A stretch of DNA of 64,000 nt from NCBI GenBank assembly GCA_020137815.1, contig CM035353.1:62001-126000 (forward strand). Direction: 5' to 3'. Origin of the DNA: Hormiphora californensis. Lineage: Eukaryota; Animalia; Ctenophora. Position numbers and translations under genes: made by a program. Every line of letters starts with the position of its first letter. The first letter of the stretch is position 1. Below the pieces are notes generated by a model, which saw only the letters and a program-made list of their open reading frames with translations, had not been told where the DNA came from and did not search any database. Shown one piece after another: positions 12,257-46,445 of the stretch.

Positions 12257-22107
<9,851 letters not shown>

Positions 22108-22278
22108 AGATGTTTGTATAGCTGCAAAATGCGAAGAAAAGCTGGGGTAATGTCTGACTTCAATATTGCATATATGTGTGTGTATTGGAACTGTGCGGGT
22201 GTAGAACTCAAATGTATGGGAGCTGAATGTATACCATTGCTGCACTGTATAAACGTTGAATGTGTATAATACAAGGTG

Positions 22279-23828: not shown

Positions 23829-24139
23829 AGTCTGTTTTTTGTCTGCTAAATGTCTATCAAGATAATAAGTTTATCATCCATATTATGAATATAAAGCGAA
23901 TATACTCTAAAGAGAACCCAGTCTGCAGTCAATATAAATACTGTTTTTTTTATATTGAAAAGTTTGGTGCTTACAGCATACAGCATTGAAATTTTTGGTG
24001 CATTCTATTTACTATAGGTATTCTAATACACAATTATCGATTAATTTTATTCATTTCGTTTATTGGAAACAAATATTTCTGAGTTTAACTTGAATTTATT
24101 GTAACTTCGTTTATGTAATATCTTCGATTAATATCTGTA

Positions 24140-24398: not shown

Positions 24399-24761
24399 TA
24401 TATGTATATGGTTTATTTAATGTAACTGAAGTGTGAGAGAAAGAGAGCACATCGTTTAATGTAAAAATGGTTTATTTAAGTGTAATATTTACGTTTGGTC
24501 GCGATGTGCCCAATATTTACGTATGAAAAGTGAGGGAAGATAAACATGTATACTCACTTTAATGTCTTAGAAAATTGAACCAACTCGTTTTATAGATGTT
24601 AATATTCATCAAACATACAAACTTGATTCACAAACCACTCGCATTCTCGGCCGCACTGCTTATACTTAGTCCCTTGGTCGAATCTCTTTGTTCCAACTCT
24701 TATCAAACTCAATACCGTGCAAACATTCAGCACCTCAATTTAAATGGGACATGGCCATTTC

Positions 24762-26017
24762 TCAAGAACCATCACGGAGGCCACTAGGTAGGGGGCCCTC
24801 CGACACCCCAGTTGTCCCATTCGCCATACTCGTATCAGTCATTTCGGGGACAAATCCTCCCTTTTTCCGGCTGGACTTGTGGCACAACATGGCAGCTAAC
24901 CTCAGCCCACCACTGTGGGAGAGAGGGTGAACCTTGGAGGAGTCATGTGGGTGCCGTAGGGCCACATTGGACCCCAGTTGTAGTGGCGGGGCGGTGGAAA
25001 GGGCCTGGATCTCAGAGAACCACTTAGCCCTCTTTCTCCAGGGAACGATTAGCAGAACCTTACATGTTGATTGTGCTATTTTCCTGGCCACCCTCATTAA
25101 CACCTGATCATTATCAAAGGGGGGAAAACAGTAGACAGTGTCCCAGTTATCCCAGGACACGGTAAAGGCATCCTGTTTAAAACTCATCGGGTCCTCTCTC
25201 TGACTAACAAACACGGCACATTTATAGCTGTGGTATGACGCAAACAAGTCCATATCGGGGGCCACCTTAAAGTGATCGCAGATCTTGTCATACAGTTTAG
25301 TCGGCATAACCCAGTCAGTGGTGTCAGGCATCTGGTGACTCTGTACCTCCGCGACCTTGTTACGGGGCCCGGTGTAATAGACGGCGGTGAGAGCGAGTTC
25401 ATAACGCTTCGCCACCTCCCATATCTTCAGCTTGAGAGTTCGCGTGACTGAGTTGGGGGTGGCCTGCACTGCTCCAGTCTTGCTCGGGTTCACTCTGTTG
25501 ATCAGGTTTACTGCTTCCTAGAAGAATAGAAGCAACCGTAGTATAATAATATTGTATATCGCGACACTAACAATCTCTACGGAACCCAATTCATATCAGT
25601 ATGATTTGCAAAAAGCCACAGCGTTTATACCTATAGATTATGATTGTCTAGATGAGACAACAACAACGGTTACCTGGTTGTCTAAATACAATGTAACATC
25701 AGTAGGGTTGTATTGCTCGTGCTTGTAGAAGGTTTTGAGAACAAAGTACACAGCCTTCAACTCCCGTTCTAGTGAGGATAACTTGCATTCTTTCTCCTCC
25801 CAATATCCCCGCACGATACGCCCTAGTAGGGAAATCATGTTGTTACTACCATGCCGACCCATTCATGACACTGTTAAAGAACTAATCGATTCTAGGGAGT
25901 TATCTCAGCACTTGTTGCAATGGATCCAAAGGTGTTATAGTTGTTACCGTTTGATAGATTTTCCCCGCCCCATCCGGAGTGACTTGCATCCGACACTAAC
26001 TCAACCTGATTTCCCAT
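24762..26017 (-). CDS. Intron-containing DIRS-type RNase H + DNA N6-adenine methyltransferase-like module
   Basis: Three exons join into VSDASHSGWGG..|..RGYWEEKE..SSLERELKAV..LYLDNQ|EAVNLINR..RNKVAE (DIRS RNase H), then DW..MDLFAS..DAFTVSW..VYCFPPF..LLIVPW..WF..HP..LRLAAM (DIRS MT domain). No stops; no RT, gag or tyrosine recombinase recognised nearby. Confidence 0.88.
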
Positions 26018-29000
26018 CTGAAATATAAACAAATTAACATTGTGAACTACTACTGAAGCATTGTACTTCATTGTCACCACCATTGATCCCTACTAACCCC
26101 CTTATACAACAAACACCCTACTAACCCCCTTATAAAACTAACCCCTGACTGATCCGTTATTTCGGTGCAGTATCGGTCGCGTGGCGCCAGGAAGATGCTC
26201 TCCATCTGGCTTGTCAGCGTCTCGTCTAGCTCCGGGCTTATATACTCAAGGGAGTCTGGTGCCTCAGGAACTTCATACGTTCCAGAGTCTGAGGGGTTGA
26301 ATTCGTAATATTATATTCATATTATACATGTCTGATCGCGCCGTAGGTTTGAGACACCCCCAGACAGTATACCGGTCTAGTATTGAGTTTAGGTATTATT
26401 TTGAAGAATAAATGTGTGATGAAATTATGCAAATCTCTATTGTCTTCACCTCGTTTCGCATTATTCGCCATCGCCGTGTATTCAGATTGGGGTGCAGGAA
26501 TAACGTTGTCATCAAACACTGCCTCAACTCTGTCCAGAATGTGCTACAATTGAGAGGGTGGGGGGGTAGTCAGTTTTAAGTTGTAGTTATAGGTAGATTG
26601 CGGGATCATGGATTCAGAGAAATAGCTGGTGATTGGAGTATATGATTGTTCGATACTTTAATGCGCAAATTCATCAATGTATTACCGCTCGTTTCCCATT
26701 CCGAGATTTGGGCGAGAAGATAATCTCAAGGGCGAAGACCACAGCGGCTAACAGCACTCCGGGAATACAGATGTAGAGGATCCCCAGGAGAGAGGCAAGC
26801 TGTAAACTATCTGCCTCCGCATCAAATCCACCCTCCTCGCAGTGCACTAATAGATATAGGGAGATATAATAGATATAAGGGAGATAGAGATCCATGTTTC
26901 AATTATTAAATGAGGGGGAGAGAGGTCTTCAACCCCTTACTCAACAAGATGACATAGTTCGGCCGAAGTCTTCTGATTCTTAACTGAATTTTAGTGCTTT
27001 GAAAGAAGGAATTCTGGAATCATAAACGTTTCTAGAAATGTATGGATACTTACCGTTAACATAGCTATCCCAGAAACCCTTGATCATTCCCTTCTCCTGC
27101 ATAATTAGCATCTCCCTATTGAAGTCTTCTATAAACGGTGACCCGATCTGATAGGCAAACGCGTACCTGTAGTAATAAAGTGGGTTGGTGACATAGACAC
27201 CTGGCGTCACCAATAAAATTGGTGGTTTCTTGCTTGTTCAATATATGCCTTTTATCATATGTACTCAGACCCATGATGTAACAAAAATATAAATGAATGC
27301 TCACCCGAAATCTACAAGAACGTCCCCAATAAGCTCCAATTCACAATTCTCGGATAGAATCTTCTCCAGAGGACCAACTCCATACATAAATATATAGCTT
27401 CCGATCTTCATTCGAGTTGTGGCTTCCTTTAGCGAACTTGTGGAGTTGGATCGGGCGTAAACTTTTCGCAGAAGAGCATCCTAGTGCGGTGGGAATGTAT
27501 CATTTATTAATTGATTAGTATAATCATGGAGTAATTTCAGTAATCATTCCTAATCATGTTATGATCAGTAATCATGGTTTGTCTATTATATATTACTTAC
27601 ATCGCTGTTCTGCAACAGGTTCTCCGTGATAGACCCCTCTATTGTACCAAAAGTGTAGTCGTCCTGGTTTAGAAGGTCCTCCGGTGAACTGATATCAGCT
27701 CCCTCATTTGACACTGAGATCAGATCGCATTTGTATAACATATGGCAATGAAATAATCTTCTACAATTTTAAACATATTTTCAAAATTCAAAAAGGTTAT
27801 GTTTATTGTTTTTCTTCTAAACATATAATTACCGGTAAGGAATGCGGCAAGGTTTGCAGTGTACATACTGACCATAACCAGGCAGATCATCCACCAAACG
27901 GTTAGAAGGAGTCTCGCGGACCAGTTCTTGGGGATACCATCGGCAGGGGCCACCGCCAGGAAGGAGCAGATTGACAACCATAGGGAATTGGGAGCGTTCA
28001 TTATGGCTGAAAGGAATGAAAATAATATTTATAGTTCATTTTTGAATCACTTAAAAGTTAATTTGCATTGCTCACCCATTTGATGCTTGAGTTCATTATC
28101 TTCTTCGAATGGGCACCATACGTCTCTGAAGCCATGTTTCAGAAGATTTGTGCATTTTGAACATCCACACAGTTTCGCCTTTACATTTACCCCACCGTAG
28201 TTTCCGTAGGGGCTGATTCGGTCAAAAGAAAAGAAGACAAGGAAAAAGAATATAATTCCACAGCCAATAGACGCCCTAAAAATCGTAGCGTTAGATAATC
28301 ATTGTAATTGACGTTATAAGGTTTACTTACCATACGCCGAAAGAGAAAGGCTTTAGAAAGAAGAAGAAATCATTAACAGAGACATCTTTTGTCGTAGCCA
28401 TCCTTACCCCTCCCGGGAGAATTGTGATCCCAAAGTTCACTGCCCTCTCTCGGCTGTGTGATATCCCGAATCCCACAATCCCAATGTCCATTCTCTGCAA
28501 AGATGGTAAACAATTGAGCTTGACCCTCTTTCCGTGCCCTCTGTCACGTAAAAGAGGCCTAGGTTAGAACAAAACAATGAGATATTTTATGTTTAGAATG
28601 ATTTATTTCACCTACTTTTTCGTTGATTTCTTTAATTAGCCCATTCCATTCTCCATTAACTTCATTTCCAAACTTTCCATCTTTAGGTTCAATGAACTCA
28701 TAATCAAAGTTAAGCTTTGATTGAAGTTGCCTGATAATATCGATACTAATTCCTGTGTAGCACCATTCCTTATTCTCCATCGCTGAAAAAATGTTCTTTT
28801 CACTTTACCATACCAGATTACCAATTAGCGGTGCTGGTATCACTAAGTGATTGGCCCTGCATGCGTAGGGCCCCCATCAGGGGTTCACACCCATGGCAAC
28901 CGCTCTTATAAAATCAAATCAATCAGATTCTCAATAATTAAAAGAAGACCTTTAGAAGTTGTCTAATATACCTGAGCAATTGTTGTATTTAATGGGTCCC

Positions 29001-31801
29001 CGGGTGTAGTTGTAAATGATAAAGGGAGGATCTTCCAGGACGCCAAGTTTTAGTTTCACCTCCGTCACACTCGGCTTGTCGGAGGGTGTATCAGGCAATG
29101 CATGGGTCCATATCGGGTCCAGGTTTATCTTTAGTCCCCCATCCTTCTTCCACTCTCCGATCTGCAACACAATAAAACATTCATACTATACACTGACTTG
29201 TTGAGCAAGGGGTTACTCAACAAATACCGACGATGAAGAAGTTTTATAAAATTTATTAAAATTTACCTTTCTGATTTCATCGGAAGCGTTGAGGTGCCTG
29301 TTGAAGTTGACAATGTCGTAACTCATCTTCCTTACTGATCTCTGAATGAGATGACAAAAGTATGATGAAAACGTTATCAGTCCAATTGTAATGTGACATG
29401 ATTATAAATACGTTATCAGTCAGCGATCAGGCATTCCAATAATTCAACCTCTGTATATATACCTGTTGAAACTGTTGATAAACTCGTTCACCAAGCGGCC
29501 ATTCCAGTTCTGTGGTCGAGCAGTTGCCAGGGTAGTTGGTTATCTGTTCACTGGAGAATGAGGGACTCCGATATACCGCATCTATTGCCCCCGCCAGGAA
29601 GTGAACCGACTCGTATACTAACACATCCACCGGCTGGAAATATACACATACTTCTAGTTCTTGCATGTGCACTGTGCAGTATCGTAAAGCAATTAATTTG
29701 AACGGAGGAGGGGCGAGGGCGTCAACGTTCATGTATTTAAAATATATGTGTATTTCAGAAACCGTAATGGTCAGATTACAGATACCGTATTCTCACTACA
29801 AGCACCCATGATAGGAAGAATGCAGGATAATACTATGGGAACATGCACAATATGCCGTACTAAACATATACCGTTAGGCGCTCATTGTTTTGCAGATACT
29901 CCTCCCTCAAATTGTTTACTTTCTCCGCGGGTATGGCAAGAGTTGGTGATAGTCCGACAAGTCCATCATAGTAGGTTTTAATTCGGCCTTCCCTTGTAAA
30001 CACATCTGTCTGAAAGTGTAATGCATACTCAATTAATAAAAGCTGCTGAAAATTGTTTCCTTTTGTTCATAATTACATAGTCCATGATAAAATCTAAAAG
30101 CCCGGATCAGTGGTTACAACATACAAGGGATTGAGTGATAGGAGTTGTCACTAGCCAAACATAAACACTGTCAATCATTCCGTTCTCGCTGGCGGCCTCT
30201 AGAACGACCTCAGCAAAGGCGGGTGGCATAAGCAGCACTGTCACTCTAGTGCTCTTTGATAACAGTTCGTCAATCCAACCTTTCGTCATAAAAGTTGTTC
30301 TGAAAAATGGTTTTGATGATTTTACCACTTTGAGTCGGCCATTATACCACATATGTATGTCCTAACGTTTGTGTACTATTGTTATCACATATGTTGGTCC
30401 AACATTGTTGGATTACTTTGTTGGATTACATTGGATTGATAAGTAAATTACCCAGTTCTTCCCTTGAGTTCCTTTACTAGTGTTGTATTGAAGGTATATC
30501 GAATACGAATGTCAGACAGCAGATCTATTTCTCGTTTCTTTAGTTCCGATTTTAAAAACTTTCGCATTGTTAAACCTGAAAATTGAGGTGGTACTTTTCA
30601 GTGTTCTGAATTCTTTTGGAGGCCTTTTATTCGTTTTTTTACCAAGGCAGAAATTTGGTTATAATATAGACTAAGATGAGATCGTGGAAGATAATTCATT
30701 GTTGCTTTTCTATGATTTAAACTTACCATAGGCGTCGTCTGTGTAAACGATAGATACGCGATCCCAATGGAAATGTTTAATCAAATCTGCCATCGCAACT
30801 GCTTGTACCTAAGAGAATTATGAAACATGATAAATGGGGTGGGGGGGGGGCAACATTGCATTGGCCTAAATATAGACACTTCATAAGTTCATGTCAATAA
30901 ACATATTAAATAAAACGATTCCTTTCTCTATAGATTTTAGATTTACCTGATTAGAAGGACTGAGCCTGTAAAGAGATGCAGTCCAGCTGCCATACTCGAT
31001 ATAAGGGTCCGCCGCAGTCGGCGCTATTAACGGCATCTTTATCTGCAATAAAGTTGAATAGATATGAATCAAATCGAAGGTTCGTGATTGAGCTCTGAGC
31101 GACGCAGAAGGTGGAAAAGGTACAGTCTGTATAGTACTCTTTTGAAACAGATGTTTCGTGATTCTAATTACTTACTAGGCTGGTGAGATAAGCGCATTCT
31201 CGGACGTGGCTCGAGTCAAAGGGACCAACTACTCCGGATATCTTACTTTCACGTAACACATTACATACTGGGGATACGATATAATTGTAACGATATTATA
31301 CTCTAGTTAAAACACTATACAGTCGAGAATAAAATACAATTCTGTAGGAGCTAATTGCGGGAGCTTACGTTGTGTTGTTGTTTTGGCCGGACTACTCTGG
31401 GCTTCCAGTCCGGTACTTATAGCAACTCCTTTTAAAGTTGTCTCCGGTAATATCTATAGCATGTATTATAGAAGTTAAAACAGAATGTAATAAGAGCTTT
31501 TTGCAAGAACCATTTAATTGAGCTAAACCATATTAATTGATTTATTGTTACCGTGTCTTGCTTGTTGACTTCATTAATGGCAATTCTCATTGCCCTCTCA
31601 GAATTCGAGGCGATATTCGAGTGAAGTAAAGCTGAAAAATAATAATCAGTTAGCCATTAATAATTAATGTTTGAAGTATGTTTCATGAAACGCTCAACAC
31701 TAATTAAATGACCCTCAAAATGAAGTCTCACCTATAGTCAAGTCATCTGTAGCATGGGTTAGTCCGAGAAGACTTAAGAGAAGTAGGCGGGCAACAAACA
31801 T
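24762..31801 (-). CDS. Ionotropic glutamate receptor subunit A (epsilon-like), with predicted C-terminal DIRS-derived RNase H + methyltransferase extension
   Basis: Minus-strand GT-AG exons, all phases compatible: 31801-31732 (signal peptide MFVARLLLLSLLGLTHA), 31631-31552, 31453-31369, 31267-31176, 31042-30947, 30808-30727, 30575-30452, 30299-30125, 30009-29872, 29633-29463, 29341-29267 (ATD); 29161-28972, 28782-28616, 28494-28331 (S1, DGKFG..WNGLI, FLKPFS); 28275-28076 (M1); 28006-27833 (M2-M3, MYTANLAAFLT); 27713-27601, 27480-27305, 27166-27054 (S2); 26846-26686 (M4); then 26543-26450, 26288-26143, 26017-25948, 25822-25674, 25517-24762. The iGluR core (882 codons) is secure; the tail linkage is predicted. 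Confidence 0.9.
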
Positions 31802-32234: not shown

Positions 32235-35200
32235 ATGAAGTCGCTACGTTTGTTACTGTTACATTTCTTAGCAATTGTAATATCGGGGCAGCAGGATCTC
32301 AAATCTATTAGAATAGGTCAGTCAATGCATGGCTTCAATCTTATATTGTTTCCCTTCTTCTTGGTGATCCAGACCTCTCGACAGTCCCCCCACAGCACCT
32401 CCATCCACCCACCGCCCCCACCCCACCACACAGCACCTCCACCCACCCACCGCCCCCACCCCACCACACAGCACCTCCACCCACCCACCGCCCCCACCCC
32501 ACCACACAGCACCTCCACCCACCCACCGCCCCACCACACCACACAGCACCTCCACCCACACACCGCCCCCACCCCACCACACAGCACCTCCACCCACCCA
32601 CCGCCCCACCACACCACACAGCACCTCCACCCACCCACCGCCCCCACACACCACACAGCACCTCCACCCACCCACCGCCCCACCACACCACACAGCACCT
32701 CCACCCACCCACCGCCCCCACCACACCACACAGCACCTCCACCCACCCACCGCCCCCACCCCACCACACAGCACCTCCACCCACCCACCGCCCCCACCCC
32801 ACCACACAGCACCTCCACCCACCCACCGCCCCCACCCCACCACACAGCACCTCCACCCACCCACCGCCCCCACCCACCACACAGCACCTCCACCCACCCA
32901 CCGCCCCCACCCACCACACAGCACCTCCACCCACCCACCGCCCCCACCCCACCACACAGCACCTCCACCCACCCACCGCCCCCACCCCACCACACAGCAC
33001 CTCCACCCACCGCCCCCACCCCACCACACAGCACCTCCACCCACCCACCGCCCCCACCACACCACACAGCACCTCCACCCACCCACCGCCCCCACCACAC
33101 AGCACCTCCACCCACCCACCGCCCCTACCACACCACACAGCACCTCCACCCACCCACCGCCCCCACCCCACCACACAGCACCTCCACCCACCCACCGCCC
33201 CCACCACACCACACAGCACCTCCACCCACCCACCGCCCCCACCCCTTATCCAGAGTACCCAGCGGGTACCCACTACGCTCTGCTTCTTCTTCCCTTTACT
33301 AAAGGCCTCCTCCAGGGCTTTTAATTGATTTAGTACCATTATATCGTTATTTATCTTGTTAACTCCTCTGCAGGGCTACTTTATACGGATGAGAAGAGTA
33401 ACACACCGATAGCATTTAATCAGGCTATCAACGAAGTCAACTCAGATACAGAGGTATCATATGCAGCCAATCAGAAGCCTTCATTTCAAAATCCAGGCCT
33501 CTGATTGGCTCGCAGTCAGACCCATATCATGCAGTCCATATTTTATAGCTGTTTTTTCTATTGTATAACTAAGTTATGAATCCGGCTAAGGAATTAGAAA
33601 TGAATTATGGATTAATTATCTAGAGTTTAAATCATATTTTAGAACAAAATTCCAGATTTCAAATGTTTTGTATGTTTTGTATATTCTAGTGGTTACCTGG
33701 TGTAGTATTGGACGCAGTAACGAAGAACATCGGAAGTGACAATGACAACCCCGCACAAGCCGTTCATCGAAGTGAGTTTGAGACAGATCAGATCGGTAAT
33801 ACTAAGTATTAGTATATTTGGTTTCATATTATCATAATAACGTATGATCATTTATCACATATGTTTCACAGTGTGCAGATTGCTGGAGCAGGATGATTTG
33901 ATGGCGGTTATTGGTCCCTTTTCCTCATCTCATGTGAAATCATGTTCCTACACAACACACCGGGTATGTTTAGAGATTCAAATATTGTAGATGACAGATT
34001 GGCGTCGACTGAATTGTTATAAGTACAGTTGTACGTGTGACTAGCTTAGGATTGTAATGATGAAGGATTGATGAAATGTGACCGTATTTTCAGATGGATC
34101 TACCCCTAGTAGCCCCAACAGCCACAGACCCCGATCTAACTAACCCGTTCTGGAGTGACAGTCTTTTAAAACTTAGTCCTAGCAATACCGTGAGTTTTGA
34201 TGTAGTTACCCACGTTACCTGGGTTACCAATGTTACCTCTACTATCACTGGTTACCGAGGTAACCTGCTACTACTACTGCACGGAGATCAATATGAATTT
34301 CAATTTCAGTTCCAAGCAGACGCCATGGTAGACGTTGTGGTTAAATTTGGGTGGCGGAGAGTTTCCCTTGTGTTCACTAGCGAGCCCTATGGTAATTCGA
34401 TAATTCTGCTGTATTTGTATGGTTCTAGGTCGATATGCTGTTATCGTGAATATACCTATGTGATATCTTAATTGAAGCATTTGGAACATAAATGAACATT
34501 ATCACATTTAAAAGATTGGATAATTTAAGTTTCTTTTACTCTTTTAGGTGTAACTCTCGGCTGAGGAAATGAGGAACAAAATTAAAGGGGAAGGGAGTAA
34601 AAGTTATCACGGAGTTGGAAATAGGGCTTGATTTGAACCCCTCCACCAAAACTACTAAGTAAGTGTTTCAAATTATAAATTAACGAATTGAAAGAATTGT
34701 ATATCTATTGAATTGAGTAAGCTTCAAATGATAGATTCATGAATGAATTGTATATCTATTGATAGAGGCGTGGCTGGCTGTTATACCATTATTAGTGAAC
34801 AGGATACAGTTAGCGATGAAAATTAGTTTTCAGATTTTGTAGAGAATGCTCACCTGGATCAAATAAAGATATTTTTAGGCATATGTAATTCAATAATTCT
34901 CAAATTAGTCAGAGCTGGTTAGCTGGATAGTGGATATATAGCAGAATATGATCATCATTTGCCTTTAGAGGGTGGATCAATCAGCTCAAGAATGCGGTCA
35001 CCAGGGTAACGCTCCTCCTGACTCACTCATCTGTGGGAAATGAAGTGCTGAAAGCAGCCAGGAAACACGACATGATCGGACGAGAGTATGTGTGGGTCGC
35101 TTCAACCGCTATGGCTGATGCTACGGTAAGATAATTATCATATACAATCTAAGGGAGAAATAAAGGGTAGAGGAGCTTGTTTCATTTTGACTTCTCTCCA

Positions 35201-38200
35201 TGAATCTCCACTTTCCAGGACCTTGCGTTTTCACCTGATGGAAATCTAAAGCCTGAGTATGATGGGTTGCTTGGAGTGTCGGCCTACCTAGATATCACTG
35301 GCGGTTTCTACAAGCGCCTCAGGAGGGCTTATACTGATGCTAATGTAACAAGAATATCGGTACGTATCAATTCCAATATGGAGGTTAGGATTACTTCGCC
35401 GCGGAGGTTCCGTGAACAATTGATTCTCAAAAATATATTCTTGATAATAAATTATTCACGGAACTTAATATATTAGCTCCTGCAATACAATCTTCCCCTC
35501 AATTGCTACCATATCTTGATCAACTATACAGGTGTCCATCTCACCAACTCCCCCCCCCCCTCTAGCCTGCCGATGCCCTTGTTTACGATGGAGTCTACCT
35601 ATTGGCACACGGTTTGGATAGGGTGATAAAATCACGCGATGGTAACCTGGAAATGATAGACAACTTTGCTGGTGACTGTTACTCAGACTCCTTGCCTAAA
35701 GAGTGGACTGACTTAGTTAACTCACTTAAAATCAATTTCATGGTATAACATACAACTTATTATCATTCTTTTTTCAGAAAAAAACACTCCCTTTTTTCAC
35801 TCCTCCCCGCGCTAACATTTAAAATATCATACTCAGTCCCTTACATTGCTTGTAATTTGATGTAACTCTCCTATAGTCGCCCTACACCGGTATTACGGGA
35901 TCAAGAAGCATGTGGCCAGATGGGAACCCTGACGGAGACAAGATCCGATACAATATAGTCAGCTTCTCCAATAACGCCGTGGAACCGGTATGACGCTATT
36001 TTCTGGTTTACGAACTATAATATCTTTAGTGAAGCTTTGATTTGATTTTTTGATTTGGAAAAGGATAAAAATCGATATATTTATAAAGACAATATCCCGG
36101 TTGGCTCCTATTGACGGAGTGTCAATATCGACGGAGCGCTTACACCTCAAAATACTCTAAAAATTCACACACAGACAGTTCTCACACACTACAGACAAAC
36201 AGACTAATACAGTATATTTTTAATAGAATAAACAAAATCTAATATGGCTGCTATAATAGATAATATATTGATTATTTCCCCCTCCCTAGCCAACCCCCCA
36301 AAATTCTTGTTTGTAAATGTCTTGTAATCAGTTATGTGATTAGATTCGCGACTGTGCGATTGCTTGTTGTATAGTTTCAACTCTTCAACACCACACCAAA
36401 GAAATAAATAATTTGAAGTCCATGAGATAGGAGAGATTGATCTAAAGTTTAGAAAGTAGGTGAAGTCAATAGCACAGCCGCGAATTTACGAATTTGGAAT
36501 GTTATTCCAGAGATAATCTTTGAGCTTGGCCACAAAGGCATCATGAGAATCTAGGCATCGTAGGTCATGCGGAAGGTTATTCCATTCCACATGGATACGG
36601 TAAAAATAACTATGTTTAAAAGCGTCAATATTAGGGTTATGTGTGCAAATGATGTCTGTTTGGTCCCGGTTTGTCTGTTGTCTAGTTGTACGCCTGTCGT
36701 GTCTGTCAGGGATGTATTTGTGAAGGAACATTGGAAGTTTTAGGGATGAAGATCCGTAGAATATCTTATGAAACAGTTTTAAGTCATTATAAAGGAACCT
36801 TTCGGTAATAGGAAGAATCTTTCTTTGTTTAAGTTTACTGACATACGTTTTCCAATCATAGCTGAGCTCCATTTCATTATTTATCCATTTTAATGCACGT
36901 TTTTGGAGCTTTTCGAACTTTTCAATACTAGAGGCTGAAACTGGTCGCCATATCTGGCTGCAGTGTTCAAACAACGAACTAACAAGACTGACATAAAGTG
37001 TTCTCCTCTTTAGAGGGGAATCAACCAGAGCACTAGTTCTCTTGACTAGGCCTAACCTCTGAGACGTTTTAGAAATTATCATGTTTTGGTGTTCTAGAGG
37101 CGATAATTTTCTATTGGTGATCACCCCCAGGTCAGTTTCATTTGTACATTGTTGAATCTCACTACTTCCTAAGTAATATTTTAGGTTAACAGGCTTATGC
37201 TTCAAGGTACATCTAAGAAGTTTACATTTATTAGGGTGGAACTTCATTTTATTTTTCACACTCCACTCAATCAATCTATCAATATCAGGCTGGAGACTAT
37301 CATTTTCATTCTTAATCGTCCTCCAGATTTTTAGATCATCTGCATATAGCTTTATATTGGTTTCTCCTTCATCCCCAATGGCCTCAACTATATCATTTAT
37401 AAATAGAACAAAAAGGAATGGACCGAGGATGGATCCTTGAGGGACTCCACTCTTAACATTAGACCATTCCGAGAATTCACCATCTAATGCTACTCTCTGT
37501 CGACGTCCAGATAAGTACGCTTTAAGAAATTGCAACATTTTACCGTTTATGTTATACTGGACTTTAAGTTTTTCAAGTATGACATCGTGTGATACGCTGT
37601 CAAAAGCCTTTTGAAAATCAAAATATATAATATCTGTTTGCAAGTGTTGGTTTAAATTTATTGCTAGCTCACAGTTAAACTCGATCAGTTGGGTCGTACA
37701 TGACTTCAGTGGTACGAACCCATGCTGATGAGGTGTAACTTTCTCCAGACAAGCCCTATACAGGCGCTCTCTAACCAACTTTTCGAAGACCTTCATAATT
37801 AGACACGTAAGAGAAATCGGTCTATAATTCTCTACATTAGACTTATCTCCTTTTTTGTGGACTGGCACAACATTTGCATTTTTCCACTCAGTTGGAATAG
37901 ACCCTTCATCAAAAACTTTGTTAAAAATTAATACTAGTGGATATGCCAATGATTTGTGACATTTTTTCAAAACTATACCGTCTATATTATCTGGGCCAGT
38001 GGCCTTGGATGCATCTAATTTTCTTAATATATCTACAACTTCATCAAAGTGAAAAGTTTCGTTGTTAAAATCATTATCGTGGTTTCTATCAAAATCAATT
38101 GGTGTGCTATACGTACTGGCTTGTGTGAACTGTTTACAAAAAAAATCATTAAACATTTTGCATTTTTGTTGACTACTTTTTTCAGAGTTATCCTCGTAAT

Positions 38201-41200
38201 GAACTATATCAGGGACTCTAGTGCTGCTAGTTTTTGATTTCACATGTTTAAAAAACTTTTTGGAAATTGCAGCTGTAGAGGCAGACTCATCAATGGAGGA
38301 GAGTTCTAGAAAGTGTGTTTCTTTCTCCCTTGACGCTTTTCTGTACTCTGCCTCCATACAAGTAAATACATTTTTTAGGGAAACATCATTTGGAAACTTC
38401 AGAGAAGCTTTTCTAGAATTATCCATTGACCTTTTTAACTGTCTCAACTCATCATCGTACCAGGGTGGTTGAGATCCTATTTTTACATTAACTAATGGTA
38501 CATGGTGTCTTAGGGTAATATCTAATTTTGATTTAAATTTCTGAAGAGATTGCTCGGCCCTGAGGTGTTTGAATTCCTTAGTCCAGTCATACCGAATCAG
38601 TCCCTCATTAATCGCATCCCAATCAGCTTTCTTGTAAGAAAACTTTTTAGCCGTCTTAAACTTGGGTCTTATCTTTTTGATTTGCACCTCACATTTAATA
38701 GTGAAGTGGTCAGATTTGACTAAACAATTTTCTTCTACCGATACATTGGAAAAACACGAACTATTATTTGTGAGAATTAGATCTAATACATTTCCATCCC
38801 TGTGTGTTGGTGCGTTTATTAACGAACTCATACCCAGAGATGTAAAAAGGTGAGCAAAGCCTTCGTGTATACTATTGCTCGATACTGGGTCATCCCAATC
38901 TTTAACCGAACTTAGATTGAGATCCCCGATGATTGCTAGGTTTTTATATTTTCTAGATAGGCGTGTGTAGTACCGCTCAGTTTCTTCAAGACAATCTGAC
39001 CCCGAGTAGTCATACCTGTAGAATGTTGAGATACATATCGGGGTCAGGTTTTTTGACTTGAGCAGTATGGTGACAATAGGCAGATTTACCTTGTCCTTTA
39101 CCTGATCAACTTCAATACCCATGTTATTCTTACATAGAATCATAACTCCTCCCCCACCCTTTTTATCATACATTTCCATGTCCCTTTTAGTTCTATCTTT
39201 TCTGTATATTGTATAGAACTGATCGGACACTAATTCCCCATCATTGACATGCTTGTTCAACCACGTTTCATTTAATACTACAATTTCTGGCTCATAAGTA
39301 AACAAGTATGCTCGGAGATCAGAGAGTTTAGATACTTGAAACTGGGGCTGATCACCACTAATTGATTGCATATTTATGAGACCATTAACGTTGCAGTACA
39401 CCACACTAATTTTTGTTTTTGGTTCAGTAGGCCCAGGATTTACAATACTGGGCTGGTGGATAACAATAAGTGCTTTTGCTAGACTTGAAAGAAAGATTAA
39501 TAGTACGACTAGTCGACACCTAACTATGATTTTGGAACAGGTGTTCCCTATTTTCCCCATACTTTTGAATATCACCAGGGTTAACACACAATTAGCATAC
39601 CAAATGTAATGCTGGTTGATACTCTTACCGACTTCTTCTCGGCCTGTTTCCATACATAGTTCTCTACAGGACAGAGAGGAAGTACATCTGGACATAGAGC
39701 CTAAAAGAATAAGTATTAGTATACTGTAACTTAGGTAGAGAATCAAATGAAATGGTGATATTGATGATGTTTGTCTGTACTGTCGGTCAAGGGTTTTGTT
39801 AGTAAACATTTTTCTTTTTCCACCCCTCCCCCCTGCAAACCTCCCAATAGTTTGTCTGTACTGTTCAGCACTTATCATTGTGGGGGTTTTGGATTTTGGT
39901 TTCGGCACTAAGGGTTCACGGAGGGTCTGTTGGTTGGGGTAATAAAACAACTTCTCCCCCCAAACATATATATTATCAATGCAGCAAAATCAGCAATCAG
40001 CGTAAAACTTCGTTATAAATCAGGTCAGTTAAGACCGAGTAACCATATTTATTCAAATGCACACCATCCCTACAATAAAGTGATGAGTTGAAAAACAAAT
40101 CACGCGTTAGGAAATCAGCCATCCAACTCACAAAACTGCAGTTCATGAGTTGGGACACACAATTTACAATTTTGTTGTACATGGTAACATTAGAGACCGT
40201 ATATGAGAAGTCTCCTCTCAGGGGAAGGACATGTGTAATCACTATCTCCGGGTCCCCATACAACCGTCTAATCTGCCTCACTAGGTGGCATAGTGCCCCT
40301 TGGAGTCGGTTCTTCGTTGCGCTGTTCTCACAGAAGTTCTTATCAAACCTAATATCGTTCGTACCATAGCAGATAACAACCTTCTCAAAGTGTGCCTCAG
40401 GGTGGCTCTGGTGGTACCTGGACAGCTCTTCAAACGCTGTAGTACCCTTCCATTTCGAATGGGGCTTCACAATCCTTGCACCCGACACAGAGATATTCTC
40501 AAGCCCCCGGATCTCAGGTACCCATTTGGACAGGCTCGTGCCCAAGAGCAGAGTAGTGGGGCTCCTAGGGTTGACGGCATGTCTCAAAGAAGGGACCACT
40601 CCAGAAGGGGTAGGAAGTAGGGGTGGTCTAACGGAGGGTACCGGCACGTTCGCCACTGGGGGAGGAGGAGGAGGATCCGGTTGGTAACCATCCCCATTAG
40701 GAGGAGGAGGGGAATGCTGGACTCCTATTGTTGCCCTCGATGGTGGGGAGGGCAGTCTCCGTGGGCTAGGTGGTGGTGGTGGTGGTACCAGATCTGTTGA
40801 GGGGAGCTGTGGGGTTGCTCTTCTGTAGTGATGCTTTCATTTGCAACTATGTATATGTTGTTTCCAACATCAATAAGCGATACTTTTTCTTGGAAAACCT
40901 GACCAGTGGCCTCTATACTTACATATCTCCTCCACAGGTTGGTCAGTGGCAAAAGGAGAGTAGGGTGACGCTTAACAAGGAAATTACCTGGTATGAAGGT
41001 GAAGATGTCACCCCCATTGACTCTCCAAACCTTGTCAATGTTACTCTTAAACTTGGACTACTGGAAGACAAACCGTTCATCATTTACAATTACACAAACT
41101 ACAACTATTCCAAATGTGAAGGTATATGGCCCTAGTAAACACAAAAAGTTTTTATAGCAATTGTGATGTAAATATTTGACATTGAACTGTTTCAGATATG

Positions 41201-44200
41201 CCGAATAAGGACTGGTGTTACACGGGGGTCAGCATTGATATTGTTAGGGACCTCCAGAAGAAGCTAAAGTTCAACTATGAGTTCTTTGAGTCGCCTGACG
41301 GGAAGTTTGGTAGTGTTAATAACGGCCAGTGGAATGGAATTATCAAAGAAATTAATGAGAAGGTAAATAACCTTTCAAAAAACTTTGAAGAAGAAGCCAA
41401 ATTAACTTTTAATAACCCTCCAAAAAACTCCCTAGAGGGTTGATATTGGTGTTGTTGGATTTGGTACATCGCACAGTCGAGAGAAGGCGGTTGATTTTGG
41501 TATTTCCTTCCTTCCTGGTGGAGTGAGGATGGCGACAAGAATGACTGCCGTGGAGACCAATCCTTTCTTTTTCCTGAAACCATTCTCAAACACTGTATGG
41601 TAAGCAATTGACTATTTTATATTCATACTCCTAGCCTCTCTCCTTCCCTCTTCCCAAAAAGAGAGGGGACGTCGTCCCCGGTTTCCTAGTTGGAATTAAC
41701 CCATCTTTATAATGAATGTTTTTACACATTACAGGATAGCTATTTTGGTTGGTATCCTGTTCTTCTTTGTGGTAATTCACGCCCTTGACTGGTACAGCCC
41801 TTACGGATATGCAGGTTAGTTTGAAATTGAGTTATTTGATAAAAGATGGCAGTTGAAACTATCATTATGGAGACTAGCAAAACTGGGGCGATCGTACCGA
41901 TCGCAAATCGAGGGGTCTGTTTCTATGTTTTTCTCTCTGCCTGTCTGCTATATGCTATGTGATGTGATCCCTCTCTTTTTCTTTCTTTCTCTCCCTTTTA
42001 TATATGTGATGTGACCCCTCAGGCCTCAAGTAGTTCTCAACACGTGTGATACGTGATACCTACGAATCACGTCGTCACACTGACGGATCACATCGTCTCA
42101 CTGACGGATCACATCGTCACACTGACGGATCACGTCGTCACATTGACGATAGGGTGTCACATTTCCGTGCAAATTTGCATTAGATATAGTTAGATATATT
42201 ACTTGATTTGTAATCTTCCTAAATTTCAGGAAGTATCAGATTCAAATGTAGCCAGTGCCAGTGTGAAAAATGCCAGGAGTTGACAAGACGGGGAGGGTTC
42301 AGAGAGAAACACTGTCCTTTTGAGGAAGACCACGAGCTTAAACACCGAATGGGTAAACTCATACTTTCCTGGGTCTAGGACTGAATGTCGAACAGACAAT
42401 AAATCACATCGGTTCGAAAGCTCGAAAATGTGGCCCTAACCCTAACCCGAACGATAGCCCTAAGCATATTAAGAAAACAGTACACAGTAAACTTTTCGTA
42501 TTTGGCCTAGCGGCCAAATTATCGAGCTTACATCCTAGCTCGGTGATTTATCGTCCGTTCGACTTTTAGTACGGACCCCCTTATATTATATCCTAATATT
42601 ACAATATTACAAAAAAGAGATAATACATTTACAGGGACGATGAGCAAGGCGAATGCGTTGTGGCTTTCCGTTTGCTCCTTCCTGACCTATGCCCCTGCTG
42701 ACGCGGTCCCCAAGAACTGGTCAGCCCGGATCATGATCACTATTTGGTGGATGGTGTGTCTTGTGTTGGTCAGTATGTACACTGCAAACCTTGCCGCCTT
42801 CCTAACAGGTTAGGGGGACCACATACAGCACCGGTGCGAACTCCAGAACGTCGCACCACATACTGTCGGTGGAAACTTCAGTACAGTGAGTGTATGTGGT
42901 GCCTCTTACTGAACAATCAATAAAAAACCTTCAAAACAAGCTAAAAACACGTAATTTTTTGTGAAATATCTTCCTCTCACTAATACCGAACTCTCTCTAC
43001 CTCCTTTTCTCTCTCTTGTTATGTTTATCTCCACTTATCTCTCTTTTATCTTTCCCGATTGCAGCACATATTTTCTCGATATGTTGGATAATCTCGCCCT
43101 TGTTCTAGGTGTGGCCCTTTCTGTCGTAGTGAGAGTGCGTGCGCCTCTTATTGGTTGCTGTGGTGTGGGTGTGTGTGTGTATTGTGAGATGCAGGTCTGT
43201 CATTGGCTAGTGCGCGCACGTGACCCCCACGTGACCTTTCAGTTCAGTACGAAGAGCACATACAGCACCGTACTGATCTTTTCTGAGCTAAGCTCACGTG
43301 AGATTGTGTACTGATAGTCCCACCGATATTTATCAGTAAGAGGCACCACATACGGCAGTGCGTACTGGAGTTTGCACCGAAAGTGCTGTATGTGCTAGTG
43401 AGAACTGAAGTTAGAGGCACCACATAAAGTCGGATTTTTTGAAGTTGTCACCCCAAAATGACCGCGCATGTGAAATTTATCAATTTTGACGCGCACACCA
43501 CACGTTAACATGTGATGTGACGCGCAAAAACATTCCGCGCACGACAAGGGGGGTGACAACTTCAAAAAATCCGACTTTACGGCGGTGCGAATTTCAGTAC
43601 AGTGCTGTATGTGGTCCCCCTTAGAGATCCCCATGGTAATATATCATAGAGTTTAGCTACAGATCTCCACCCCCCAACCCCACCACGGGCTGTGATTTTT
43701 GCTTGGTCCTTGAAGCGCCGTGATTGTTGCTTGGTCCTTCATGAAGGCGTGATTGTCAGGCTCATGCCCATAAACGCGGCACTCACGTGTGATCCATATT
43801 TGCATTCTGCACGTTTCAGTTCGGAAGATGACCGTGGACATCAATAGCATCGGGGACCTGCTTGACCAGAACGAATATAGTTTTGGAACCGTGGAGGGCA
43901 CTGTCACGGAGAATCTCATTCGATATGGAAGTGTAAGTGAAGTGTTTTATTTTGTTTTTAGATTTGGTTCTCATTTTCCTTAGCCCTGATCATTGTAAAC
44001 CCGATTCCTTTTGGTGTCTGAGTCGTTAGCTCACTTTGAGCTGAAACTTTGTGTACAATACTAAATTTATTTACGAATATTTATGAATGTTACTTGTTTC
44101 TAGAGCGAGGAAATGCAGAACGTTGCAAAGCGAATGAATTCCACAAACAGTTTTTCTGAGGCAGTTGATCGGATGAGATCGAGAAAATATATTTTCATGT

Positions 44201-46445
44201 ATGGGAGAGGGCCATTAGAGTACAGTACCCAAACGGAGTATTGCAATCTGAAACTGGTTGGAGATGTTATCGTTCACTTTGGGTAAGTAATACTGGTCCC
44301 TGATTGGCTGATAACTAGTCACGTGACCTAAATAACGAGTTCTGATTGGTTGGAGATGTTATCGTTCACTTTGGGTAAGTAATACTGGTCCCTGATTGGC
44401 TGATAACCAGTCACGTGATCTAAATAACGAGTTCTGATTGGTTGGAGATGTTATTGTTCACTTTGGGTAAGTAATGCTGGTCCCTGATTGGCTGATAACC
44501 AGTCACGTGATCTAAATAACGAGTTCTGATTGGTTGGAGATGTTATCGTTCACTTTGGGTAAGTAATACTGGTAACAATACACAGCAGTTCCCAGGTTCC
44601 TAAGACAAACAAACACGTTCCTAAGACGTCTTTAACAAACAAACAAACAAACAAACACAGCAGTTCTAATTCCTCTAGGTCTCAGCTTCACTCCTCTCAG
44701 GCGCCGGCATTACTTATGTTAAATAATATGTAATGCAGTAATACATAACCCTAAGCTAAGCTATATAATATAGTACTCAGTATGATTATTGAAGCGTTTG
44801 AGGCGATATATGCTTTGAATATTGTCCAAATCACAGCACTAACAAACAAACAAACAAACTCACAAACAAACTCAATAGTGTGTTGTCTCGTCTGCAGGTA
44901 CGCGTTTGCCTTTCAACAGGGGTCCCCCTACAAAGAGGCGTTCAATAGGGAGATGCTGACCATGCAGGAAAAGGGTGTCATAATGAACTACTGGGAAAAT
45001 TATATCAGCCAGGGATCTTGCGAGGAGGACAAAGAGTTTGATTTTGAGGCGGATAAATTAGAAATCAAATCATTGATTGGTAATAAAAGATAAATTAATT
45101 TATCTTTTATTACAGTCGGACAAAGCCTTTGTTGTCCATCAACTGTCGAAGGTCTTTATTCGATTCTATTTTCAGGTTTGCTTATTATTGCACTTCCGTT
45201 GGTCTTGGTTGCTCTAATTCTTTTGGGAACTGAACTCTTTGCATCTCCAAAAGGGAAAAAGGGAAAGAGAATGGTAACGAAAGCAAATTATTTTTAGTCA
45301 GATATAATCATGTTGACTTTTCTTACATATTTCCGTTGTTTACAACCTGTTTTAGCCTCATACTTGTCATTTTGCATATGTTTTTGCATTCTTCATCCCC
45401 ATAATGATATGTTTTTGCATTCTTCATCCCCATAATGATATGTTTTTGCATTCTTCATCCAATAATGATATGTTTTCTTTTCTGTTACAGTTCTCACCAC
45501 TCGGTCGCCTTTTCAACAATAGCCCCGGAGCCCGAACCTGCGAAAGTAATCTTACAACCCCAAACGTAATGAAACTATGCGCTGTTATATAATATCACGT
45601 CATCAATAATTTCTTTGTCTTCGGGAAGTTTCGGGACCCGAAAATATGAGAAAATTATAATAGTTTCATCAAATTGTAGTTTCGAAAACGAAATTCAACA
45701 ACAAAATTGTAATATCAAAAACAAAATTCAACAACAATCGATATAGTGTCATAATTTTCAGGTTTCGAAACTTTTTGAAAACAAGGGATCAGTACTTCTT
45801 CTTCTTGTGTTTTGTGCATGGTTTGCAGTGCTTGTCGTGCTTGTTTGGGGTGGAGGTAGCGTCATTGCCGTGACTGTGTGCTACTCATACTGGAGTCTTG
45901 TCTTATTCCTGCATCTTAGAGACTCCCAGTTCTTTAGCGAGGTAACTCACCTCTAGCATTTAATATATGTGCATGTATTGTTGGAAGTGTTGTTTGATCT
46001 AAAAATGGGATTCTTAATTTATTTTTTCCGTGAAATGCCCTCCTTTTGATCAAGCCCATATCTGTTATCTATATGTATTCACTAGTCTACCATAGTCCAT
46101 AGAGTTTGGTTTGGAGTTTTACAGCACAACATATATACCTATCCGTTGTGTATTATCCGTCTCAAAAGATTATCTACCTATAGGGTATGCAAGACATTTT
46201 GAAACACCAATTGGATCTAAATGAGAGTGTAGCAGACAAAATGGAGCTGAATGAGGAATCGGTGGGGCTTTCAACTGATTTTGATTCCGTTCATGCCTCA
46301 CTAGATCGAAGCGGTAAGACATTGAACGCAATTTAATTAGATAAAACATTCCTTTCCCTTTTAGCACCTTAACTGCCAATTATGTGATACCATTGACACT
46401 ATTAAAATAAATTTTTTCCTTCCACAGAGTTTGAAGAATGAATGA
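32235..46445 (+). CDS. Ionotropic glutamate receptor subunit B (epsilon-like paralogue)
   Basis: Exons 32235-32316 (signal peptide), 33374-33453, 33690-33771, 33872-33963, 34094-34189, 34310-34391, 34548-34658 (two apparent +1 indels), 34969-35125, 35219-35359, 35566-35742, 35877-35987, 40938-41121, 41196-41362, 41436-41599, 41735-41814 (M1), 42230-42352, 42635-42808 (MYTANLAAFLT), 43820-43932, 44104-44282, 44898-45079, 45176-45273 (M4). Tentative tail exons 45491-45565, 45762-45941, 46428-46445. Many exon lengths equal those of paralogue A (80, 92, 96, 82, 167, 164, 174, 113). Confidence 0.88.
32389..33245 (+). repeat. C/A-rich ~38-bp minisatellite in iGluR-B intron 1
   Basis: CACACAGCACCTCCACCCACCCACCGCCCCCACCCCAC, ~22 imperfect copies; open in several frames only because the unit lacks stops. 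Confidence 0.95.
36486..39950 (-). CDS. LINE ORF2: AP endonuclease + reverse transcriptase
   Basis: APE motifs YCNVNGL, LNETWL, GGGVMI, IIGDLNL, LDLILT, SDH; RT motifs YRPISLT, DFQKAFDSV, GVPQGSILGP, LYADDLK, DLGV; uninterrupted 1154 codons. Confidence 0.95.
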   Translation of the reverse strand: MFYYPNQQTLREPLVPKPKSKTPTMISAEQYRQTIGRFAGGRGGKRKMFTNKTLDRQYRQTSSISPFHLILYLSYSILILILLGSMSRCTSSLSCRELCMETGREEVGKSINQHYIWYANCVLTLVIFKSMGKIGNTCSKIIVRCRLVVLLIFLSSLAKALIVIHQPSIVNPGPTEPKTKISVVYCNVNGLINMQSISGDQPQFQVSKLSDLRAYLFTYEPEIVVLNETWLNKHVNDGELVSDQFYTIYRKDRTKRDMEMYDKKGGGGVMILCKNNMGIEVDQVKDKVNLPIVTILLKSKNLTPICISTFYRYDYSGSDCLEETERYYTRLSRKYKNLAIIGDLNLSSVKDWDDPVSSNSIHEGFAHLFTSLGMSSLINAPTHRDGNVLDLILTNNSSCFSNVSVEENCLVKSDHFTIKCEVQIKKIRPKFKTAKKFSYKKADWDAINEGLIRYDWTKEFKHLRAEQSLQKFKSKLDITLRHHVPLVNVKIGSQPPWYDDELRQLKRSMDNSRKASLKFPNDVSLKNVFTCMEAEYRKASREKETHFLELSSIDESASTAAISKKFFKHVKSKTSSTRVPDIVHYEDNSEKSSQQKCKMFNDFFCKQFTQASTYSTPIDFDRNHDNDFNNETFHFDEVVDILRKLDASKATGPDNIDGIVLKKCHKSLAYPLVLIFNKVFDEGSIPTEWKNANVVPVHKKGDKSNVENYRPISLTCLIMKVFEKLVRERLYRACLEKVTPHQHGFVPLKSCTTQLIEFNCELAINLNQHLQTDIIYFDFQKAFDSVSHDVILEKLKVQYNINGKMLQFLKAYLSGRRQRVALDGEFSEWSNVKSGVPQGSILGPFLFVLFINDIVEAIGDEGETNIKLYADDLKIWRTIKNENDSLQPDIDRLIEWSVKNKMKFHPNKCKLLRCTLKHKPVNLKYYLGSSEIQQCTNETDLGVITNRKLSPLEHQNMIISKTSQRLGLVKRTSALVDSPLKRRTLYVSLVSSLFEHCSQIWRPVSASSIEKFEKLQKRALKWINNEMELSYDWKTYVSKLKQRKILPITERFLYNDLKLFHKIFYGSSSLKLPMFLHKYIPDRHDRRTTRQQTNRDQTDIICTHNPNIDAFKHSYFYRIHVEWNNLPHDLRCLDSHDAFVAKLKDYLWNNIPNS
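39997..40830 (-). CDS. LINE ORF1 C-terminal part: proline-rich linker + SGNH/GDSL esterase
   Basis: LLGTSL (block I), SVSGA (II), YGTND (III), DGVHLN (V); the frame is open upstream of 40656 through poly-Pro to the truncation near 40830. Confidence 0.88.
   Translation of the reverse strand, partial: HYRRATPQLPSTDLVPPPPPPSPRRLPSPPSRATIGVQHSPPPPNGDGYQPDPPPPPPVANVPVPSVRPPLLPTPSGVVPSLRHAVNPRSPTTLLLGTSLSKWVPEIRGLENISVSGARIVKPHSKWKGTTAFEELSRYHQSHPEAHFEKVVICYGTNDIRFDKNFCENSATKNRLQGALCHLVRQIRRLYGDPEIVITHVLPLRGDFSYTVSNVTMYNKIVNCVSQLMNCSFVSWMADFLTRDLFFNSSLYCRDGVHLNKYGYSVLTDLIYNEVLR
42371..42578. mobile_element. Short imperfect-TIR element with internal CCCTAA repeats
   Basis: GGGTCTAGGACTGAATGTCGAACAGACAATAAATCAC pairs imperfectly with GTGATTTATCGTCCGTTCGACTTTTAGTACGGACCC. 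Confidence 0.55.
42813..43620. mobile_element. PIF/Harbinger-type MITE, 4 nt downstream of the M3 exon end
   Basis: TTA|GGGGGACCACATACAGCAC ... GTGCTGTATGTGGTCCCCC|TTA (3-bp TTA TSD, GGG termini). Confidence 0.88.
44255..44572 (+). repeat. 92-bp tandem repeat (3.5 copies) spanning an exon end and splice donor
   Basis: TGGTTGGAGATGTTATCGTTCACTTTGG|GTAAGTAATACTGG... at 44255, 44347, 44439 and 44531. Confidence 0.93.

Follow-up and report, generated by a model that had tools for sequence, protein, structure and literature searches.

Can a ligand-gated channel carry the nucleic-acid-handling end of a retrotransposon polyprotein? The question is raised by a 64,000-nucleotide stretch of the genome of the ctenophore Hormiphora californensis (GenBank assembly GCA_020137815.1, contig CM035353.1, positions 62,001 to 126,000), referred to here as the window. 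A first-pass annotation had placed there an ionotropic glutamate receptor (iGluR) gene, here called gene A, whose cytoplasmic tail appeared to be joined to an RNase H and methyltransferase (MT) module of the DIRS retrotransposon type. Flexible regions for docking are what iGluR tails are known for, so that an enzyme-like tail folded into two domains would widen what the family can do. The animal lineage in which the fusion sits is, moreover, at the heart of the argument over how nervous systems arose. We are close to certain that the fusion is real. With a rough probability of 0.55, we favour the reading that gene A encodes a channel subunit whose captured RNase H-MT (RH-MT) tail is a folded, membrane-tethered RNA-binding module and not an active methyltransferase.

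Gene A forms a single frame from ectodomain to methyltransferase

Guided by tblastn of homologues, we resolved gene A on the minus strand into 24 exons that, from a start at 31631, form one open frame of 1262 amino acids, the first (signal-peptide) exon being excluded from this model; with that exon, the length of about 1286 aa given in the first pass is plausible. Exon ends are AG acceptors and GT donors throughout, and the sole stop is the terminal one at 24762-24764. Beginning in the ectodomain, the frame runs across M4, continues as a linker and ends with an RNase H domain followed by a Dam/PCIF1-like MT domain. Exons 1-18 (26847..31631) encode the amino-terminal domain (ATD), S1, M1, a Cys-rich loop, M2, M3 with its SYTANLAAF motif, and S2; their assignment draws on the exon ends, the absence of stops, a Pfam Lig_chan match and the orthologues. 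At the ATD end the model is about 20 residues short (29342-29462), where GITGH..WP is present in 4/4 homologues, reflecting either a real deletion or an exon absent from the assembly. The M4 exon (26686..26846) ends, as first annotated, at a phase-0 GT donor.

Five exons follow, after introns of 142, 161, 125, 125 and 156 nt with junction phases 0,1,0,1,0 and no stop before 24762; every boundary originally proposed for them held. Of the five, the first two make up a linker that is not DIRS-like. Linker exon 1 (26450..26543) shows weak likeness to the short native tail of B-type paralogues, with 21-23% identity to a Bolinopsis B-type tail over 47 columns, and may represent the ancestral C-terminal domain. 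Linker exon 2 (26143..26288) aligns over a conserved TYE.P..SSLEY.SP motif and is partly ordered in a model of the Mnemiopsis tail. The exon model and alignment place strands 1-2 of RNase H in 25948..26017, which thus holds the first catalytic Asp (DAS..GWG), and the RNase H core, with the catalytic Glu (ELKAV) and Asp (LDN), in 25674..25822. The last exon (24762..25517) holds the C-terminal helix of RNase H, where the fourth acid is Glu, a DIRS-type MT (DLFAS, DAF, YCFPP, HP), a short disordered end and the stop.

Profile searches of gene A matched Pfam Lig_chan and Dam, in line with the domains first proposed. The last exon scores E 1.4e-7 against Dam (PF05869), which passes the cut-off, and the RNase H exon alone gives a weak E of 0.11. 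Hydrophobic peaks occur at M1, M3 and M4 and none lies beyond M4, which would put the tail on the cytoplasmic side. The AATAAA hexamers noted earlier as candidate poly(A) signals are both present on the minus strand at 24471-24476 and 24412-24417; they are weak evidence, because the hexamer is abundant in the window (113 observed against 87 expected).

The fusion recurs in other ctenophores

The gene model alone would leave room for a different account, in which the RH-MT exons are a DIRS remnant or a separate downstream gene and the join is a prediction artefact or a rare read-through. Reading through the M4 donor does meet a stop, followed by ATTAAA at 26662, both of which the first pass had named as a possible transcript end; as such hexamers occur in 7 of the 23 gene A introns, they carry little weight. 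This account would also fit two negative results: we found no read or contig of this species' own gene among the listed RNA sources, a result that is silent on expression, and no tail-bearing Bolinopsis or Hormiphora protein appeared among the matches to the Mnemiopsis tail (1524 candidates of 719-2289 aa).

Set against it is, first, a spliced homologous contig. Run X1, whose RNA nature is presumed, shares almost no exact words with the window, and all 13 of its records matched to the window are less than 90% alike. Record 1 (1846 nt), at about 80%, is thereby ruled out as the window's own transcript. Separate X1 records track A and its paralogue B, which suggests that the source is a related species and not a set of paralogues. 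Along record 1, a piece of MT (79-124) is followed by one of RNase H (815-878) and one of M4 (1325-1410), overlapping positions 24828-24873 of the last exon, 25714-25777 of the RNase H core exon, and the M4 exon. The pieces are spaced by 690 and 446 nt, near the 684 and 428 of the spliced model and unlike the 840 and 981 of the genome; the record is therefore spliced, and both offsets from the model are multiples of three, so that the frame is kept. If X1 is RNA as presumed, the fusion join is transcribed in a relative. Sequence spanning the junctions, which the first pass had called for, thus comes from this homologous contig and not from the species' own gene. Across the two receptor exons that record 1 overlaps, 17/21 listed differences fall at third codon positions; no tail differences are listed, and the count is silent on selection in the tail.

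Second, full-length fusion proteins exist in other ctenophores. A search with the M2-M3 exon gave four proteins among 36 candidates, two of them with the tail: Mnemiopsis leidyi KAL5252227.1 (P0002), a 1308-aa protein annotated 'hypothetical protein', and P0003, a single 1262-aa open reading frame (ORF) on a 4759-nt contig that is probably a transcript, because 4759 nt cannot accommodate the window's introns. Both match Lig_chan and Dam; the Dam match passes the cut-off in P0003 but falls short of it in P0002. M4 and tail are joined in two Mnemiopsis gene models, and P0002 and P0003 were the only tail-bearing proteins among the 1524 candidates, a size range that leaves split or shorter models outside. 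An older Mnemiopsis model, P0157, fuses residue 980 to residue 1050 of P0002 at the sites of two window introns. This model leaves out the exons for the pore and for RNase H, a possible reason for the architecture having been overlooked.

Searched against 1.84 billion representatives, the last exon gave 4026 matches at E 0.001. Four of them, P0006 (94% identical), P0007 (beginning in the last exon and 89% identical to Mnemiopsis), P0008 and P0009, stood at E <=5e-49, with the next match at 9e-23; all four are additional tails of the ctenophore type. P0008 and P0009 carry RH-MT as an uninterrupted ORF on contigs of 13-327 kb; P0008 also includes the second linker exon, and because the linker motif is shared, both would belong to an iGluR. 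Among 26 further matches scanned, 19 have a reverse transcriptase (RT) domain and one the N-terminal part of a recombinase, as in DIRS-type pol, and nearly every relative of the tail outside the ctenophore set has the look of such a pol. Other searches were less productive. Among longer proteins, the last exon retrieved one DIRS-type pol (P0001) from 1074 candidates and missed the orthologues; a JGI metagenome scan gave 527 pattern matches, none confirmed; and motif searches of the PMC6307864 supplements for the orthologue's older ML gene name had no match.

Conservation points the same way. Compared with P0002/P0003, RNase H is 42-43% identical, MT 46-50%, the linker 27-30%, the ATD 44-46% and the S1-S2 core 68-74%, which places the RH-MT tail (42-50%) on a par with the ATD, and no orthologue contains a stop or frameshift. 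In a tree of S1-M4 with six ctenophore rows, three tail-bearing and three tail-less subunits split with 100/100 support. The fusion, judged from these sequences, is present in at least two ctenophore lineages, and its tail is very probably folded and under purifying selection. An artefactual join is ruled out by the X1 spliced contig and the orthologous fusion proteins. With the single-ORF P0003, the two joined Mnemiopsis models, a conserved linker, introns within the RNase H domain and intact orthologues, the absence of a functional fusion is largely refuted already and hardly credible.

The tail probably derives from a DIRS-type element

Among 90 DIRS-like relatives, 48 columns of the module are at least 85% conserved; 36 of these are kept in at least four of five full orthologues, and the D, E and D of RNase H lie within the kept columns in all five. 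The tail shares with DIRS pol an RNase H directly followed by MT, and the motifs DAS..GWG, EL.A, DN, DLFA, AF, Y.FPP and HP; identity is 28-34%, and the profile-profile (HH) probability to full pol is 99.7%. A quick tree was built from 67 rows, comprising 7 ctenophore tails and 60 of the 90 DIRS-like sequences, with near-duplicates dropped. In it the ctenophore tails lie on one side of a branch with SH-aLRT 99, which fits a single capture event; the tree has long branches, the sister is unsure and no donor is named.

An intact mobile DIRS insertion is ruled out by the introns and the lack of RT. Used as tblastn queries on the window, five RT-bearing relatives (P0001, P0010, P0020, P0042 and P0063) matched the RH-MT exons only, and the sole recombinase query, P0011, which holds an N-terminal recombinase part, gave no window match for that part. 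Since no RT or recombinase remnant was found (for recombinase, with this N-terminal query only), the first-pass assignment to a DIRS1-like element stands as DIRS-type, DIRS1 itself not being separable from its sister PAT group, which also bears MT.

In the history we propose, one of two tandem paralogues received a DIRS/PAT element downstream of its final coding exon. Splicing would then have joined the RH-MT end of that element to the earlier short tail, RT and the remainder being lost, and introns would have been acquired afterwards, on the line of descent that produced this species and Mnemiopsis. The uninterrupted ORF of P0008/P0009 is the form expected of a retroelement-derived exon at the outset. 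The simplest history would thus be an intron-free retroelement exon that gained introns before the split of this lineage from Mnemiopsis; the rival is intron loss elsewhere. On the former, intron-free and intron-bearing copies across ctenophores would make a clear case of intron gain after domestication.

Paralogue B and the receptor features

The paralogue, iGluR-B (33325..46316, plus strand), lies head-to-head with A and was assigned by tblastn and tree. It has a short tail without RH-MT and 89% identity to H. californensis AHA51398.2 over S1-M4. Its exon ends at 45273 with a GT directly after ...GKKGKRM, as originally described. RH-MT proteins used as tblastn queries on the window matched at 24792-26017 only and not at B, and the tail is likewise absent from the orthologues of B.

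The domain order of gene A (ATD, S1, M1-M2-M3, S2, M4) is that of Epsilon iGluRs, and its SYTANLAAF gate, Cys-rich M1-M2 loop and loop-1 Cys pair are Epsilon-type features in the cited passages of PMC6307864, where all ctenophore iGluRs found were Epsilon. Arg485 is kept, Gly occupies the ligand-binding Glu705 position in gene A and in 4/4 homologues, and alignment to GluK2 puts Ala at the Q/R/N site. According to the same passages, amino-acid binding needs Arg485 and an acidic residue at 705, and 28 of 122 subunits carry such changes. By that rule the gene A subunit, and B alike, is predicted not to bind an amino acid; Gly705 bears on ligand binding and not on family membership. An odd pore loop, FL[A/T][V/Y]APAD, and Gly705 recur in both paralogues and their orthologues (27833-28006 and 42635-42808; 27305-27480 and 44104-44282), and the A and B types are probably a ctenophore subclade of orphan iGluR subunits.

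Further features were observed in and around B. An apparently intact LINE sits inside an intron of B (36486-40836, minus strand), with a 1167-aa endonuclease-RT ORF at 36486-39989 and, upstream, a 279-aa GDSL/SGNH esterase-like ORF at 39997-40836; X1 record 2 joins B exons across it. At 44290-44570 are tandem copies of a B exon end, the GT donor being repeated several times in the following intron. A GC-skewed tandem repeat of about 1 kb (32312-33330) separates the 5' ends of A and B.

Predicted structure and active sites of the tail

As a stand-in, the tail of the Mnemiopsis orthologue was modelled with 116 sequences, superseding a poor 5-sequence fold (pLDDT 53.7). The model has a mean pLDDT of 80.2 and a pTM of 0.75, with 261/407 residues at 90 or above; residues 81-350 form a predicted core mostly above 90, and linker residues 16-49 and the end are predicted to be disordered. 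Its RNase H part resembles archaeal and bacterial RNase H1 (Z 15.5, 14.7 and 14.3; best rmsd 2.0 over 121 aligned residues). Its MT part best matches PCIF1/CAPAM (6irx; Z 12.5, rmsd 3.1, 148 aligned), ahead of METTL5 (Z 9.9) and the T4 and E. coli Dam proteins (9.1), in agreement with a link between DIRS MT and PCIF1 drawn in the cited part of PMC4738411. By sequence, the last exon alone had no match in the PDB at E 10. The nuclease and methyltransferase folds first proposed are thus supported, with the qualification that both active sites depart from the canonical catalytic residues.

In RNase H, the D, E and D are present in 5/5 orthologues; at the place of the fourth acid the window has Glu and the remaining four orthologues have Asn. 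A D134N mutant of E. coli RNase H reportedly keeps much activity. The DEDD set binds two metals (cited passages of PMC9719913, PMC3185654 and PMC8900815). We regard measurable RNase H activity of the tail as conceivable yet doubtful. In the MT, FPP[F/I/L/V] is found in 5/5 orthologues, the Phe also occurring in all DIRS-like rows with a residue there; this Phe takes the position of the catalytic Asn. Lacking the Asn of (N/D)PP(Y/F/W), the domain is probably an inactive pseudo-enzyme, and with FPP for NPP we set aside an active Dam-type methyltransferase as the default reading; methyl transfer by the tail seems very improbable. Cited parts of two papers agree: the N553A change in PCIF1, NPPF to APPF, is inactive (PMC9178792), and for DIRS MTs a lack of activity is considered likely and binding to transcripts possible (PMC4738411).

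What might the tail do?

On the reading we prefer, gene A would be an orphan or accessory Epsilon subunit which, because Gly replaces Glu705, probably pairs with ligand-binding partners or is gated otherwise, and which would bring RH-MT units beneath the membrane. There the retained D-E-D site would bind metal, and the RH-MT surface, an altered RNase H with a pseudo-MT, would grip RNA or an RNA/DNA hybrid, perhaps with slow cutting. We rate nucleic-acid binding as the tail's job at even odds. A stronger version, in which the subunit is a channel-nuclease and its DIRS RNase H-MT tail acts at the membrane by binding or cleaving RNA or RNA/DNA hybrids, is rather unlikely. If true, it would either couple receptor signals to the turnover of nearby RNA, or detect intermediates of retroelements or viruses from the cell interior and gate the pore. 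Such a protein would be the first ligand-gated channel with a direct connection to the handling of nucleic acids, and the first case of a domesticated DIRS pol module.

Several observations weigh against an RNA-binding module. The fourth RNase H acid (Asp in 100% of DIRS-like rows), the Asn before it and the HIN Asn, all 98-100% conserved in the 90 rows, are altered, and with them the nucleic-acid site of RNase H may be gone. RNase H and MT are not markedly basic, with net charges of -2 to +9 that lie within or near the DIRS range. Gly705 also occurs in the tail-less B-type subunits and is thus not tied to the tail. In its cited part, a preprint (10.64898/2026.05.21.726589) holds that retrotransposon DAM domains keep the catalytic pocket, although 6mA did not rise in the E. 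coli test it reports, and it treats orphan DAM domains as degenerate remnants. The conservation figures for the tail are identities and columns, and the one spliced contig comes from a divergent run presumed to be RNA.

The same changes would suit a tail with no nucleic-acid role, acting as a ligand-sensing or scaffolding regulatory domain. Such a domain would hold Mg/Mn with its D-E-D residues or SAM/SAH in the pocket of the MT, or would dock partner proteins, and so tune gating, trafficking or clustering. The MT cofactor-pocket motifs are invariant in the orthologues though the catalytic Asn is gone, the fourth acid and the HIN motif have changed alike across them, and 23 ctenophore-invariant positions are rare among the DIRS rows; RNA/DNA hybrids, moreover, would be no obvious substrate beneath the plasma membrane. 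Yet, despite 40-60% divergence, the D-E-D triad and nearly every DIRS motif survive, as would seldom be expected of a pure scaffold, and we consider this alternative unlikely.

A third possibility treats the receptor as a precursor, its tail being cut off in the linker or made from its own shorter transcript to serve as a cytoplasmic or nuclear RNase H on R-loops or retroelement intermediates; release of the TRPM7 kinase is a parallel. The disorder of the modelled linker and the three kept catalytic acids would allow this, and the RNase H exon at 26017 starts with ATG, as the first pass had remarked, with P0009 starting with Met at the same place. P0002 and P0008, however, have no Met there, X1 record 1 and P0003 are continuous with M4, and we identified no conserved cleavage site. 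We think it improbable and return to the tethered RNA-binding module as the preferred reading.

Other features of the window

Downstream of gene A, a near-identical pair of about 400 bp in opposite orientation (22253-22653, plus; 23442-23870, minus) is probably a small repeat element. Elsewhere on the plus strand, the window contains an 807-aa non-LTR RT ORF at 3868-6291 (Pfam RVT_1) with a C-terminal Cys/His and nuclease-like region, a protein-kinase C-terminal exon at about 14015-14100 (weak Pkinase match, CaMK-like by eye), and an ETS-domain gene at 56400-58900 (Pfam Ets, E 1e-19).

Comparison with known systems

The first-pass view that no iGluR of this architecture had been described is borne out by the full-text literature searched, in which we found no iGluR-RNase H fusion; the supplements of 10.64898/2026.05.21.726589 and Alberstein 2015 lie beyond that search, and in the main text of the preprint 'glutamate' and 'domesticat' have 0 occurrences. 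Gene A is an architectural variant of Epsilon iGluRs, known in GenBank only as a hypothetical protein, and likely the first domesticated DIRS RH-MT module. The function of DIRS MTs is given as still unknown in the cited parts of PMC3266345 and the preprint. With the gene A tail as a stable, soluble, host-selected RH-MT pair, that question would become testable in Mnemiopsis, a laboratory animal.

Compared with the ctenophore Epsilon iGluRs of M. leidyi (ML032222a and ML05909a; cited parts of PMC6307864 and PMC12226733), gene A shares the ATD-S1-M1-M2-M3-S2-M4 layout, SYTANLAAF, the Cys-rich M1-M2 loop, the loop-1 Cys pair and Arg485, but differs in its RNase H and MT tail of about 400 aa, Gly at 705, Ala at the Q/R/N site and a one-residue insertion in the pore loop. 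With the RT-RH-MT pol of DIRS1/PAT retrotransposons (PMC3266345, cited part) the tail has RH-MT order and motifs in common; it differs in having no nearby RT, gag or recombinase match, introns inside RNase H, an altered fourth RNase H Asp and HIN Asn, and attachment to a host membrane protein. PCIF1/CAPAM, a cap-specific adenosine N6-methyltransferase and the best match among solved structures, shares the MT fold, whereas the tail has FPP for the catalytic NPPF, no WW domain and 10-12% identity. Among channels, TRPM2 (NUDT9-H) and TRPM6/7 (alpha-kinase) are tetrameric and bear an enzyme-fold cytoplasmic tail that may be active, ligand-binding or cleaved; gene A likewise appears to be a channel with an enzyme-fold tail, in another channel family and with a transposon-derived nuclease and MT pair. 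SETMAR and the Crypton-derived domesticated genes are cases in which selection has retained a transposon domain that became spliced to a host gene; their products are nuclear and come from transposases or recombinases. Gene A is likewise a host-transposon fusion, yet one that places the RH-MT module of a DIRS pol on a membrane receptor.

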